A DNA stretch of 63,531 nucleotides, the filler included, from Globobulimina sp. (Eukaryota), in NCBI GenBank assembly GCA_003354225.1. It is 49 parts of 49 records of this genome, joined end to end, with 100 filler letters (N's around TTAATTAATTAA, not from the genome) between each part and the next. Parts side by side here need not be neighbours in the genome. Positions count along the whole stretch, not along the records: positions 36,380 to 37,577 come from PIVH01021159.1; 48 more parts are not named here. One strand, given 5' to 3'. Positions 23,581 through 46,459 of the stretch are shown one piece after another. Position 1 is the first letter of the stretch; each line of letters starts with the position of its first letter. Under the pieces are notes generated by a model. It had not been told where the DNA came from and ran no database searches. It saw nothing but the letters and a program-made list of their open reading frames with translations. Made by a program: the position numbers and the translations under genes.

Positions 23581-24405
23581 TTATTTTAATATTTCAGAAA
23601 TGGCTTTATAAAAATCATATGTCCGTACTATCCCGTTATGGGTTTGTCCCTTAATCATAATAAATTTTGCATTAACATTTTTTTCTTGAAGCGCTTCTAC
23701 ATATTTCCGTCCAAGACTTGGAAAAGTATCTTTATCATTTGATCCAGTAATTGCAGTTACTTTGATATCTGATTTAATATCTTCAATATAATTATGTGGA
23801 GATAATGAACCTGTTCCACGTTTCCAGCGGTGCATACTTGTCCAAGTATTCAAGTCACAGGGACAGCCTGCCAATACAGCCCCATTGGCAACATTCGGAT
23901 GTTTTCCTAAAATAAGAGCAGCCAGGGCAGCACCTCCCGAATGCCCAACGATATATACTTTTTGTGAATTATGTTTTTCCTTGAGTTTTTTTATTGCGGC
24001 GGCAATTTCCCTTACATTGTGTTCATTATAACTGGTACCCGAGTATGATCTTCTATTTGAGATCCCAGTGGAATAATTTTTTTCGCTATCAAAATATCCA
24101 GGCCGTATCAGTATTACCTGAACAACATCTTCTGTATCCGGATAAAGGTTTCTAGCAGCATAGCTCAAGTAATCTGAAGGGCCGCCTTTGGAGCCATCAC
24201 CATGAAGATAAACAATTAAATTATTAGAAGATTCAGTTGCGAAAAGATCAAGAGTTTTTATCCTAAAACACTCATTTATTCCTTTTACCCAATTTAGATT
24301 ATCAGCGTTTTCGCAAACGGTTTCAGCCGTTTTTACAGTTTTTGTAGTGCAACCAATCGAGAATGAAATCATGAATAAAGATAAAATGATAGATAGATGT
24401 TTCAT
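23581..24405 (-). CDS. Bacterial lipoprotein alpha/beta hydrolase
   Basis: RBS GAGGA at 24414-24418; lipobox SIG-C; YLHGD, GHSGG, D and H triad; no introns. Confidence 0.85.
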   Translation of the reverse strand: MKHLSIILSLFMISFSIGCTTKTVKTAETVCENADNLNWVKGINECFRIKTLDLFATESSNNLIVYLHGDGSKGGPSDYLSYAARNLYPDTEDVVQVILIRPGYFDSEKNYSTGISNRRSYSGTSYNEHNVREIAAAIKKLKEKHNSQKVYIVGHSGGAALAALILGKHPNVANGAVLAGCPCDLNTWTSMHRWKRGTGSLSPHNYIEDIKSDIKVTAITGSNDKDTFPSLGRKYVEALQEKNVNAKFIMIKGQTHNGIVRTYDFYKAISEILK

Positions 24406-24689
24406 ATTGAAGTTCCTCACAGCAACGAGTTAAAATATTCCAGTCAACAGAGTCAGATTGCAAAATTGATATCAAATACTAAATATAATTACAAATTAAA
24501 ACTAAAGAATAGGCTTGCAGATATAAACAATGTCTGACTGAAAAGAACAGAAGGCCTGTAAATTGTAGCATCACACCTCTTGAAATGGTNNNNNNNNNNN
24601 NNNNNNNNNNNNNNNNNNNNNNNNNNNNNNNNNTTAATTAATTAANNNNNNNNNNNNNNNNNNNNNNNNNNNNNNNNNNNNNNNNNNNN

Positions 24690-34253: not shown

Positions 34254-34981
34254 CTATTTTCCATACCGGCTCATATTTTTCATGCTGAAATGGCTTCTTT
34301 CCCAGAAAACCGGTACTGTAAAAACCGTCACTATCGTGGTGTGCTGATCAATATAATCTCTCAATGCTGCCGGACTGCCATTGCCGATAAACTGTCCGGA
34401 CTCCTCAAGGAAACCGAGCGGACTGTTTTGACTTCTGTACAGCCTTCCTTTCTGGTCATAGAAGAAAAATACGGATGATAGAAAAGTCTCTGCGTCAATA
34501 TATACAAGACGTCTGCTGTAAACATAGTTTTTGTCCTGCTGAATCATGTTGAGCTTATACATGGGCCTGCGCTCCATTTTGACGTTCTTTATCGAATACC
34601 CGTCCCTGGAATCAACATACTCGGTTCCGTCAACTGAAACAGGCCACAGATACTCTCGAACATCTCCCATCAGTTCCATTTTGTACGGATAACGGGTGGG
34701 GCTCAGTTTCTGAGCAAATCCGTCCTGGTCATCATACGTAAGGTCCTGCCCGTTAATGGGGTCCTGGGTATCTGATGAGCTCATTTTTCGAATACGCCTC
34801 AGGCTGGGGACATACATCATGGCTTGCGTGTATTTATTCGGATCCTCATAATAGTATTGCATTACTGCAGTACCTCTGATATCGCGGGGTGAGAATACGA
34901 GATTTAAAAATGACTTTTCTTCTTTATTTTTCCGGGCACGCTCGTCATAATAGCCAAAAGGAGGCATAATCGCCCGTTTTG
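34254..34981 (-). CDS. Bacterial DUF1329-family (LolA-like) protein, C-terminal part
   Basis: SPRDIRG, YVPSLRRIRKMS, DLTYDD, YVYSRRLVYIDAET and YDQKGRLYR. Confidence 0.8.
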
Positions 34982-36379: not shown

Positions 36380-36559
36380 TTTAAAAATAATAAAGGTACC
36401 AATAAAAATTAAGCAAATGTTTTAAAAACAATCACGGTACCATTAAATAGTCACCCGCCAGGCTGGTGGGTGAGTCTCCGGAGGAGACCTATTTAATGGT
36501 ACCGTGATTGTTTTTAAAACATTTGCTTAATTTTTAATGGTACCTTTATTATTTTTAAA
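36380..36559. repeat. T-shaped branched hairpin: 71-bp stem capped by two small ears
   Basis: Arms 36380-36450 and 36489-36559 with one mismatch; ears 36451-36473 and 36474-36488. Confidence 0.9.
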
Positions 36560-36766
36560 ACCTTTGTTTAATTTTTAATAATTTTTATACCTTTTAATAT
36601 TTTTAAAACATTTGTTTAATTTTTAATAATTTTTTAATGGTACCGTTCTTATTTTTAAAACTTTTGTATAACCTTTTATTATTTTTAATGGGGAGTTTAT
36701 TATTTTAAAGGTTTTTGTAAAGATTTTAATATTATTCCGTTGTTTTAAACACATTTTCCCTGTGCG

Positions 36767-36906
36767 CCCTCATATATGAGGAGCAAAAGTGTGATTTGTC
36801 CTCATATATGAGGATCAAGTGCTTTTTATCCTCATATATGAGGATCAAGTGCGTTTTATCCTCATATATGAGGAGCGCATGTGTATTCTGTCCTCATATA
36901 TGAGGA
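36767..36906. repeat. Five (T)CCTCATATATGAGGA palindromes at 30-32 bp period
   Basis: Copies at 36767, 36799, 36829, 36859 and 36891. Confidence 0.92.
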
Positions 36907-37022
36907 GTCCATGTGTGTATGATGACTTGTGAAGCTCCTGCTGATGAAGAAGATGCAGGATTTCCCATATAATAGGATTTTTATTGTTAATATTTCATTG
37001 TTGTTGTTCAGTCAAATCTACC

Positions 37023-37577
37023 ATGGCTCCTGGTTTTCAATGTTCACATTGTAGTGTTGTTTACACTAATCTGGGAAATCTCAGGCGTCACTTGAAGAAC
37101 CATGATACAAACTTCTGGTTTTCTTGTCGCCACTGCATTTTTGCTTCCAAACGTGCTGATAATTTAAAAAGGCATTCAGACAAGTATCATTCTACCAATT
37201 ATGGTTCTGTAAATGGTTCAACGCTGCCACCTGCAGTAAATGACAACCCAGCTCATCAACCTATCAACGTACCCATTAAGTCTGCTCAAACAGATGTAGG
37301 CCATACAGATAGTTACAAAGAATTTGACATGTGTTTACAGCTTCCTCACAATTTCATCTATGCCGGAGCTACTCAGAGTGTAAGTTTACTTCATTAACCA
37401 AATGTATTATCTAACTTATGCTACTTTTGTTTCAGGGCAAAACTTCGCTGTTAATGAAAACTTTGGAAAATGCCAAAAAACTTTACAAACCCGTACCTTC
37501 TCAAATCTATTTCCTCCATAATTGTAAGTTGAACTTGTGTTATATGTTACCTATATCAATGATTACTAATGTAAAAA
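37023..37577 (+). CDS. Two C2H2 zinc fingers fused to a Polinton/Maverick-type packaging ATPase; intron 37380-37435, second donor 37524; partial
   Basis: CSHC..H..H and CRHC..H...H; splicing creates Walker A LPHNFIYAGATQS-GKT followed by LYKPVPSQIYFLH. Confidence 0.7.
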
Positions 37578-45465: not shown

Positions 45466-45830
45466 TTATTGCTCTGGAAACAAAACAAGCCGCAGACCTA
45501 TGTTGTTGTCCCTGGATTCCGGGTATGTGTAGTTTCGACACGCCGAACGACTGTAAAGGGATGCATAGTTCCAGCTACCACCACGGTAAACACTAAACGA
45601 CCTGCTCCCTTCATATATGGGAGTGATGATCTCGTTTTTTACGTAGGCTTTATCCATATATATGTCCTGACACCACTCCCAGGCATTGCCCAACATATCG
45701 TACAAACCGAATTTGTTTGGCTTAAAACTTCCTACTGGTGCTGCAACTGAATACTTGTCCTCACAGTTATGAGCAGGCCAGTTCCAATCAAATTTTAATT
45801 TAGATGAAGGCGTATTTACATTAGCATATT
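45466..45830 (-). CDS. Bacterial FGE-sulfatase (SUMF1) domain, C-terminal part
   Basis: APVGSFKPNKFGLYDMLGNAWEWCQD, RGGSW and IGLRL. Confidence 0.88.
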
Positions 45831-45838
45831 GTTTTACT

Positions 45839-46459
45839 GTGAGAAAAAGATTATTGGATATACGAAATGAAGCGGAAACATTTACATGGCATATGGATTT
45901 GGATTATGATATGGTTAAAGCTGCATATGCATTTATAAAAATATTTGACGAATATGTTTTTTTGATTATGAATATCCCACGATCCGGATCTGCAACAGCA
46001 ATATGTTCACAATCGCCAGCAAATGCATTGAATTTATCGCAAAATACAGTTACAGATAATGCAATTGCTATGATAGAGAGGGCTGGTGAAGAAAAATCAT
46101 TCAAAGCATTTGTAATGGAGAAATTGGTAGAGATGGCTCGCCCTACCGTCTTATCATCAGATTTAACAAGAAGATGTTACGCAAAGAGATATAAATCATT
46201 TAAAAATTTGGATTATATAAGAATGATAGTTGAAACGGATTTTGCAGATTTATTTGTTATTGACAGAAAACCAGGTACAAAATGGATTGCAAACATCAAG
46301 AGATTAAAATTATCAGAAGTCACTGTCGATTGGAATGTATCGCAGAAGAGTGATTTGTTATTAGGCTTTAAAGAATATAGAATGACTGTAGAGAAATGGG
46401 CTAATGGTTTAGGACATGCTGAGATAATCTGGAGTAAAGCAAACAAACGATTGGTTTGA
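45839..46459 (+). CDS. Hypothetical protein, probably 5' truncated
   Basis: 206-codon ORF abutting the FGE fragment. Confidence 0.5.
   Translation: MRKRLLDIRNEAETFTWHMDLDYDMVKAAYAFIKIFDEYVFLIMNIPRSGSATAICSQSPANALNLSQNTVTDNAIAMIERAGEEKSFKAFVMEKLVEMARPTVLSSDLTRRCYAKRYKSFKNLDYIRMIVETDFADLFVIDRKPGTKWIANIKRLKLSEVTVDWNVSQKSDLLLGFKEYRMTVEKWANGLGHAEIIWSKANKRLV

Follow-up and report, generated by a model that had tools for sequence, protein, structure and literature searches.

Endogenous virophages and PLVs of Halocafeteria seosinensis that lack pPolB are reported to carry 52-nt palindromes at the tips of their TIRs, beside the TSDs, and hairpin-primed replication has been proposed for these palindromes (bioRxiv 10.64898/2026.07.28.741278). 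As these elements are outlined in that preprint, they resemble the element proposed here in having palindromes at the extreme ends and an A32/FtsK-type packaging ATPase (bioRxiv 10.64898/2026.07.28.741278). By contrast with the 52-nt palindromes outlined there, which are from a stramenopile, the palindromes described here are of at least 180-231 nt, are two-eared and have arms built of AT-rich tandem units; in addition, the ATPase here has zinc fingers, the host genes look animal-like, and neither a TIR nor a TSD was seen. The ITRs of the Parvoviridae, e.g. those of AAV and densoviruses, are similar in that they comprise a T-shaped palindrome with GC-rich ears, likely to act as a self-priming, resolvable end; the present locus differs in its AT-rich tandem-repeat arm and in that a spliced A32-like ATPase, rather than NS1/Rep or VP, is encoded beside it. 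In the Poxviridae, Asfarviridae and chloroviruses, hairpin telomeres are followed by adjacent tandem repeats, the hairpins being simple, incompletely paired loops without rabbit ears; in vaccinia, flip/flop hairpins have reportedly been found. The order of a hairpin then tandem arrays, together with an A32-family packaging ATPase in the genome (a probable one in the present case), is common to these viruses and the present locus, whereas the rabbit ears, conserved spliceosomal introns and many diverged copies are peculiar to the latter. Terminal hairpins within NCLDV TIRs are also reported (PMC12747079).

Among eukaryotic mobile DNA, Helitrons and Replitrons are described as using terminal or subterminal hairpins as recognition signals, these being simple, ~11-20 bp, and located beside HUH Rep genes (bioRxiv 10.1101/2022.12.15.520654). 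The locus described here would be alike, on that description, in having a recognition-type hairpin at or near an end, but no HUH domain is seen beside it. The adenovirus left end consists of an ITR followed by packaging A-repeats that are bound by the IVa2 ATPase. The likeness in this case would be that of a genome end followed by a short-repeat array read by a packaging ATPase, although binding is inferred from covariation only at the present locus; the adenovirus ITRs, by contrast, are protein-primed and without a hairpin, and IVa2 is without C2H2 fingers. Literature searches on T-shaped hairpins together with transposons returned AAV-vector work only.

The locus lies in a window of 63,531 nt (the whole stretch of DNA analysed), which comprises 49 contigs, each of 1197-1200 nt, sorted by length and joined by 48 N44-TTAATTAATTAA-N44 linkers. 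It follows from this layout that features near multiples of ~1,300 nt are contig ends and that neighbouring contigs give no context. Within-window comparison found the contigs adjoining that with the hairpin to be without relation to it, and no other copy of the hairpin is present in the 63,531 nt. The remaining contigs encode ordinary eukaryotic proteins, i.e. cyclin, G-alpha, Ras, PP2C, PI-PLC, Fuseless and sulfotransferase, with a few of bacterial type, and a Pfam scan of 35 other window ORFs revealed no viral hallmark. The hairpin contig itself (36380-37577, 1,198 bp) touches an N44-TTAATTAATTAA-N44 linker on its left side; thus, the outer arm of the hairpin starts at base 1 of the contig and the 71 nt observed are a lower bound for its length.

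The hairpin occupies positions 36380-36559. The left (outer) arm (36380-36450), which is AT-rich and made of ~41-nt units containing GGTACC, pairs with the right (inner) arm (36489-36559) over 71 nt with 99% complementarity, 38 nt lying between the two; the sole mismatch is at 36402, where there is an A and a T is expected from the rest of the palindrome. The GC content is 21% in the arms and 68% in the tip. When these 180 nt are folded as ssDNA, the predicted dG is -85.4 kcal/mol (z -24.8), a stability matched by none of 200 shuffles, and the fold consists of a 71-bp stem and two abutting ears with no unpaired bases at the junction. Ear 1 (36451-36473, TCACCCGCCA-GGC-TGGTGGGTGA) has 10 bp including one G.T pair, and ear 2 (36474-36488, GTCTCC-GGA-GGAGAC) has 6 bp closed by a GGA loop. 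The same two ears are obtained when the 38-nt tip is folded alone (z -4.0, one of 200 shuffles being as good) or with 6 bp of the stem (z -5.1). An earlier note, made from the sequence of this DNA, had described a 71-bp AT-rich stem with one mismatch, two abutting GC-rich ears with no unpaired junction base and, overall, an A-B-B'-C-C'-A' layout; the arm search and the ssDNA fold bear out each of these points, and a two-eared tip is also present in a relative, L002 (below). The same note had drawn attention to a C(GNA)G triloop, a type of loop that is extra stable in DNA; the GGA loop of ear 2, closed by a C-G pair, does match this pattern, but the loop is not kept in L002. Searches with Rfam gave no match in the window or in six related loci; exact searches with the tip sequence gave none in IMG/VR, JGI metagenomes or GTDB genomes, and the 17-nt base motif common to both hairpins gave none in IMG/VR.

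The sole public run in which the contig was found is X1, from one sample that is probably the source, which was analysed as Logan contigs from a k=31 assembly; runs X2 and X3 show next to nothing of it, and no RNA run is listed as containing it. In X1, 115 Logan contigs match the stretch, with 10, 32, 48 and 25 in identity bands of 99+, 95-99, 90-95 and <90%, respectively, a spread which implies a multi-copy family whose members, this sequence included, have diverged. Summed depths, which are contig depths from a single sample and not copy numbers, are 73 for the bin at the left-arm/tip junction, 290 for the tip bin, 92 for the right junction bin and 25-35 across most of the gene that lies inward of the hairpin. 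Since both tip junctions are well covered, the fold-back configuration is the common one. The outermost bin (36380-36419) has a depth of 1.6, compared with 73-290 in the neighbouring bins, and so the mismatch that it contains, being either an error or a rare variant, should be given no weight. The number of AT-rich units differs between copies, as revealed by joints between X1 contigs. With arms of at least 71 nt, flip and flop forms are identical in sequence, on opposite strands, unless a read reaches unique flank; joints of the 'opposite strands' type, linking 36430/36434 to 36599, are on our reading explained by this mirror equivalence combined with unit-number variation, rather than by flop forms.

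Two contigs extend far enough upstream of the gene to be informative, i.e. that in the window and L002, the encoded proteins of which are 44% identical, and the hairpin is present in both; thus, two hairpins are available for comparison. The other contigs begin within the gene or within their own array, or, for L008, 190 nt before its array, i.e. less than the 208 nt that separates the array from the hairpin in the window; in L012, no array and no hairpin are present in the 339 nt upstream. The L002 arms (1-89 and 143-231) are 99% complementary, with 53 nt between them, and run from base 1 of the contig (dG -143, z -29.5 for the folded hairpin). Three features are common to the two hairpins: the arm base CGGTRCCATTAAATAG, a TCACCCRCC/GGTGGGTGA box, which in the window is part of ear 1, and a GTCTCC..GGAGAC box, which in the window constitutes ear 2. 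In L002 the boxes lie within a longer GC-rich stem, and, on comparing the two sequences, the window hairpin looks like a shortened form from which the left GTCTCC box and a GC-rich insert are missing. The L002 tip has ears of its own (GGCCTCC-ATA-GGAGGCC and CAGATCTG-TGCC-CAGATCTG, z -7.2), the sequences of which are unrelated to those in the window, implying that the three-way junction persists despite changes in its sequence. Beyond the hairpins, L002 206-330 aligns with 36630-36740 of the window at ~85-90% identity, from which it follows that the window has ~140 nt of extra units. A palindrome in another relative (L013, 1618-1669) was considered as a similar hairpin, but is an AT-rich tandem duplication.

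The order of features inward from the hairpin, i.e. AT-rich units, a short-repeat array, a TATA-like box and a gene with introns, is the same in the window and in L002. In the window, the AT-rich units are degenerate tandem repeats (36492-36700, TTTAATGGTACC...TTTTTAAAAC..., period 41-48 nt), of which the hairpin arms are also made. The array (36768-36907) consists of five palindromic CCTCATATATGAGGA sites with a period of ~30 nt, for which the chance expectation is zero. The TATA-like box, CATATAATAGG (36966-36976, + strand), read by eye, is ~50 nt before the ATG; similar boxes are present in L002, L007, L008 and L010. The gene begins at 37023, 464 nt inside the hairpin, and points inward on the + strand. 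Exon 1 (37023-37381) encodes two C2H2 fingers, a variable linker, a conserved LQLPHNFIYAGATQS segment and the first half of a Walker A motif. It is followed by intron 1 (37382-37435; 54 nt, GTAAGT...TTTCAG, phase 0), the position of which is kept across the family, then by exon 2 (37436-37523, GKTSLLMKTLENAKKLYKPVPSQIYFLHN), encoding the remainder of Walker A with the helix that follows it, and by the start of intron 2 (37524-37577, GTAAGT), within which the contig ends before exon 3. Removal of intron 1, which splits Walker A, yields GATQSGKT. The exon 1 fingers, of the C-x2-C-x12-H-x3-5-H type, are above the Pfam cutoffs (zf-C2H2_4, E 4e-7, 30.6 bits, cutoff 27; zf-C2H2, 26.4 bits, cutoff 25.2), and most family members have two fingers.

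Exon 1, used as the query in an exhaustive HMMER search, yielded 3,400 matches at E <=1e-3, most of them generic proteins with multiple fingers; of the best 150, 13 align over the full exon, with 39-54% identity, all being unnamed and on contigs of <=2.5 kb. All 13 end in ...LQLPHNFIYAG[AS][TS]QS followed by read-through into GTAAGT, showing that the intron position is conserved. An alignment of the family led to 14 metagenome loci (contigs <=2.5 kb), and a profile search recovered 34 proteins of the family, none of them named and none on a contig longer than 3,017 nt. Protein-guided searches of IMG/VR with either alignment found no relatives. A genome_contigs search of GTDB species genomes gave nine candidate stretches, of which three passed tblastn, and returned no locus; it may be that some 'prokaryotic' GTDB assemblies contain the element as contamination. 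In the databases searched, no annotated genome contains the family, which was seen only on metagenome contigs of <=3 kb and is therefore easily overlooked.

Comparison of the loci by tblastx indicates a gene structure of exon 1, an exon 2 of ~30 codons and a large exon 3, with introns of ~45-55 nt and GTAAGT donors; in the relatives, exon 3 encodes a Walker B motif (LIIIDD) and a C-terminal domain with a conserved ...GYVLVDLCTNTPEHLRIR... end. Pox_A32 (PF04665) was the top Pfam family for all 11 members scanned, in each case sub-threshold (best E 8.9e-4, 18.5-19.2 bits compared with a cutoff of 22.8). In the ESM Atlas, 24 of 30 matches belonged to the Pox_A32 set; of the named clusters, the top one was 89% Viruses, most commonly Preplasmiviricota. 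The ATPase had no matches in PHROGs and gave chance-level matches only in sequence and profile searches of the PDB; the protein encoded by exons 2-3 was poorly modelled by AF2 (pLDDT 49.8). Judged from its motifs and profile matches, the gene product is a probable zinc-finger-fused A32-type packaging ATPase. No such fusion of zinc fingers with a packaging ATPase is apparent in the titles and opening abstract lines of the Polinton-related papers listed by a literature search. Nor did the family contigs (loci of <=2.5 kb and, in the protein database, <=3,017 nt) reveal a capsid, polymerase, integrase or TSD; the <=~650 nt between the ATPase gene and the contig ends hold no ORF of >=70 aa, except for two overlapping ORFs in L001, and no inverted match of the kind that a second terminus would give was found on comparing the 5' part of each locus with its 3' part.

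The array, which lies directly upstream of the TATA-like box, differs from lineage to lineage. The array motif is CCTCATATATGAGG in the window, L001 and L008, CCACATATATGTGG in L002 and L004, CTCCACATAAATGTGGAG in L005, CGCCACAAATTTGTGGCG in L003, GTATATTGGTGGCGC in L010 (~15 copies), TGGCGGATAAACGGCGGATA in L007 (~12 copies) and AATCGTCCCAAAT in L006 (11 copies). In the canonical C2H2 code, Arg specifies G, Asn A, Asp C and Ser T. When this code was applied to helix positions -1, 2, 3 and 6 of both fingers, the predicted 5-mer, G-x-G-G-y, was the commonest of four alternatives in 8 of 11 loci; the observed covariation total was reached by 5 of 20,000 label permutations, but, as the loci are related, the covariation rests on few independent changes. 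There were three misses: L007 has Ser at +3, yet its array motif is GCGGA (14 copies); L006 (1-422) has a non-canonical finger 2 (R-Y-V-R at -1, 2, 3, 6) and an unrelated upstream repeat, and might exemplify a change of specificity that goes beyond the simple C2H2 code; L012 is without an array. The covariation suggests that the ATPase probably binds its own array via its zinc fingers. The hairpin boxes, by contrast, do not co-vary with finger 2, and are therefore probably read by another protein. The pairing of fingers with arrays provides a testable case of a small DNA element telling its own genome apart at packaging or at a promoter, the specificity-changing residues, i.e. Asn/Ser in finger 2 and Asn/Asp in finger 1, being already paired with the predicted bases.

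We tentatively favor the view that the hairpin is the terminal palindrome of a multi-copy Polinton/virophage-like (Preplasmiviricota-like) element in a eukaryotic, probably animal, genome, a reading which we hold with a little less than even confidence. The palindrome is the outermost feature, is conserved and abundant, and lies beside cis-arrays and an inward-pointing packaging gene, all of which accords with a mobile or viral genome ending here; both contigs, however, begin at or inside the left arm, such that we infer, rather than observe, the terminal position. Most likely, the hairpin is of a known kind, i.e. the terminal hairpin palindromes of virus-like elements, and it is its companion, an ATPase with a co-evolving zinc-finger head, that is unexpected.

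If the hairpin is such a terminal palindrome, it would fold back when the strands separate or are nicked, so offering a 3'-OH for self-primed replication of the rolling-hairpin type, and could form a cruciform or T-junction through which the end is resolved. The conserved boxes might serve as recognition or nick sites for a replication/resolution protein encoded outside these short contigs, and the neighboring array may be a packaging signal and/or an autoregulated promoter bound by the ATPase's own fingers, as with adenovirus IVa2. A more specific proposal, which we consider rather unlikely as it stands, is that there is a lineage of small animal (possibly rotifer) virus-like elements that combine T-shaped rolling-hairpin ends with an A32/FtsK ATPase bearing a C2H2 head; in such a lineage the array would co-evolve with the C2H2 head, such that each sublineage would package only its own DNA. 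Were the terminal-palindrome reading correct, hairpin-primed ends would extend beyond the parvoviruses and large cytoplasmic DNA viruses to Polinton-like elements of animal-type hosts, and the replication model put forward in 2026 for protist virophages and PLVs would gain support.

An alternative, which is unlikely but the best surviving of those considered, is that the hairpin is the center of a long inverted duplication, in which two end regions lie head to head and the left arm mirrors the whole contig, either as a closed-hairpin concatemer junction/replicative form of the pox/NCLDV type or as a chromosomal palindrome. That both contigs stop in or at the left arm is as expected of a de Bruijn assembler walking round a hairpin, and the tandem repeats beside the hairpin, together with the A32-type ATPase, resemble pox, asfar and chlorovirus ends; furthermore, with a depth of only 1.6 at the mismatch, the arms may be effectively identical. 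In L002, however, the arms are genuinely asymmetric (A/C) at 29 nt from the tip, and the starts of the two contigs share a phase within the AT-rich unit despite arms of 71 and 89 nt (L002 1-20 compared with 36384-36403, 17/20 by eye), a coincidence which, given a 41-nt unit, is expected by chance in ~1 in 5 cases. The conserved spliceosomal introns and many diverged copies also fit endogenous elements better than a cytoplasmic giant virus. An NCLDV would be expected to have no introns and a single large genome, whereas here GTAAGT introns split Walker A and the matches are spread over 115 diverged contigs; some nuclear-phase giant viruses do have introns.

Less probable again is that the hairpin is a separate foldback/MITE-like non-autonomous repeat, which merely lies upstream of a multi-copy zinc-finger ATPase gene. 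Foldback elements have long inverted arms of tandem units, as does the hairpin here; the X1 depths, ~290 for the tip compared with ~30 for the gene, suggest that the hairpin is ~10 times commoner than the gene, and there are copies that vary in unit number. For a transposon or virus-like element with deleted derivatives, however, termini are also expected to outnumber internal genes, and the same order of features, with similar spacing, is present in L002 at 44% protein identity. That the AT-rich flank can be aligned between L002 and the window at ~85-90% identity further implies that the hairpin travels with the gene.

The hairpin is real and is not an assembly artefact. Its position at a contig end, and the low depth of the outermost 40 nt, which hold the only mismatch, are what might be expected were a chimeric inverted read, arising in the assembly or library, to have been extended by the assembler; we consider such an origin very improbable, since a fold-back of >=20 nt is present at just 1 of 98 contig ends in the window (the next longest being 14 nt), both tip junctions are well covered in the independent k=31 assembly, and a homologous palindrome is present in a different assembly (L002). 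The earlier note had likewise argued against a simple fold-back, a conclusion that holds on these grounds, although its argument from the arm mismatch is weakened by the depth of 1.6. Least probable of all is the attribution in that note to a parvovirus or densovirus ITR, free or endogenous: despite the T-shaped A-B-B'-C-C'-A' layout with GC-rich ears, and a start at the first base of the contig like those of deposited parvoviral genomes, the nearest gene encodes a spliced C2H2 and Pox_A32-like ATPase, neither NS1/Rep nor VP, the arm, an AT-rich tandem repeat, shows by eye no obvious tetramer repeats of the Rep-binding kind, IMG/VR is without a match, and Pfam scans found no parvoviral family in exon 1, in 11 exon-3 members or in the 35 other window ORFs, ~1-2.5 kb per element being visible.

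With respect to the host of the element that we tentatively propose, L013 ends in ~40 nt of a (CCCACA)n-like telomere-type repeat, the complement of TGTGGG; this hexamer is described as having been identified as the telomeric repeat of Adineta vaga and as being in use for bdelloid rotifers (PMC7943196). To the extent of that description, the L013 repeat suggests, as a lead only, a subtelomeric location and a bdelloid rotifer host, but L013 need not share the host of the window; an irregular yeast-type C1-3A repeat is a possible alternative. The main text of an eLife paper on bdelloid TEs has no mention of Maverick, Polinton, hairpin or palindrome. Also in L013, the region after the ATPase gene (1540-1920) comprises a tRNA-like stretch, in which ARAGORN found no tRNA, followed by a GTTAGCTACAGTAA-type tandem repeat.

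Elsewhere in the window, genes of bacterial type, encoding an S9/alpha-beta hydrolase with a lipoprotein-like N terminus, a DUF1329/LolA-like protein and an FGE-sulfatase, are present amid the eukaryote-type contigs (23581-24429, 34254-34979 and 45466-45903), reflecting either a mixed sample or horizontal acquisition. An ORF that fills the contig at 57147-58343 (- strand) has an RNase H domain (PF00075, E 7e-9) and probably belongs to a retroelement.

Downstream of the ATPase gene, L001 (1664-2056) and L002 (1935-2354) share a ~430-nt block without a long ORF, which is ~90% identical between them, i.e. more so than the ATPase itself (exon 1 ~40-56%, exon 3 78%). The block contains a GAAATACCCGTGGG[TC]GGAC...GTAGACGC segment, of which there are two copies in L002, and might represent a recombined module or, alternatively, a cis element that has been conserved.
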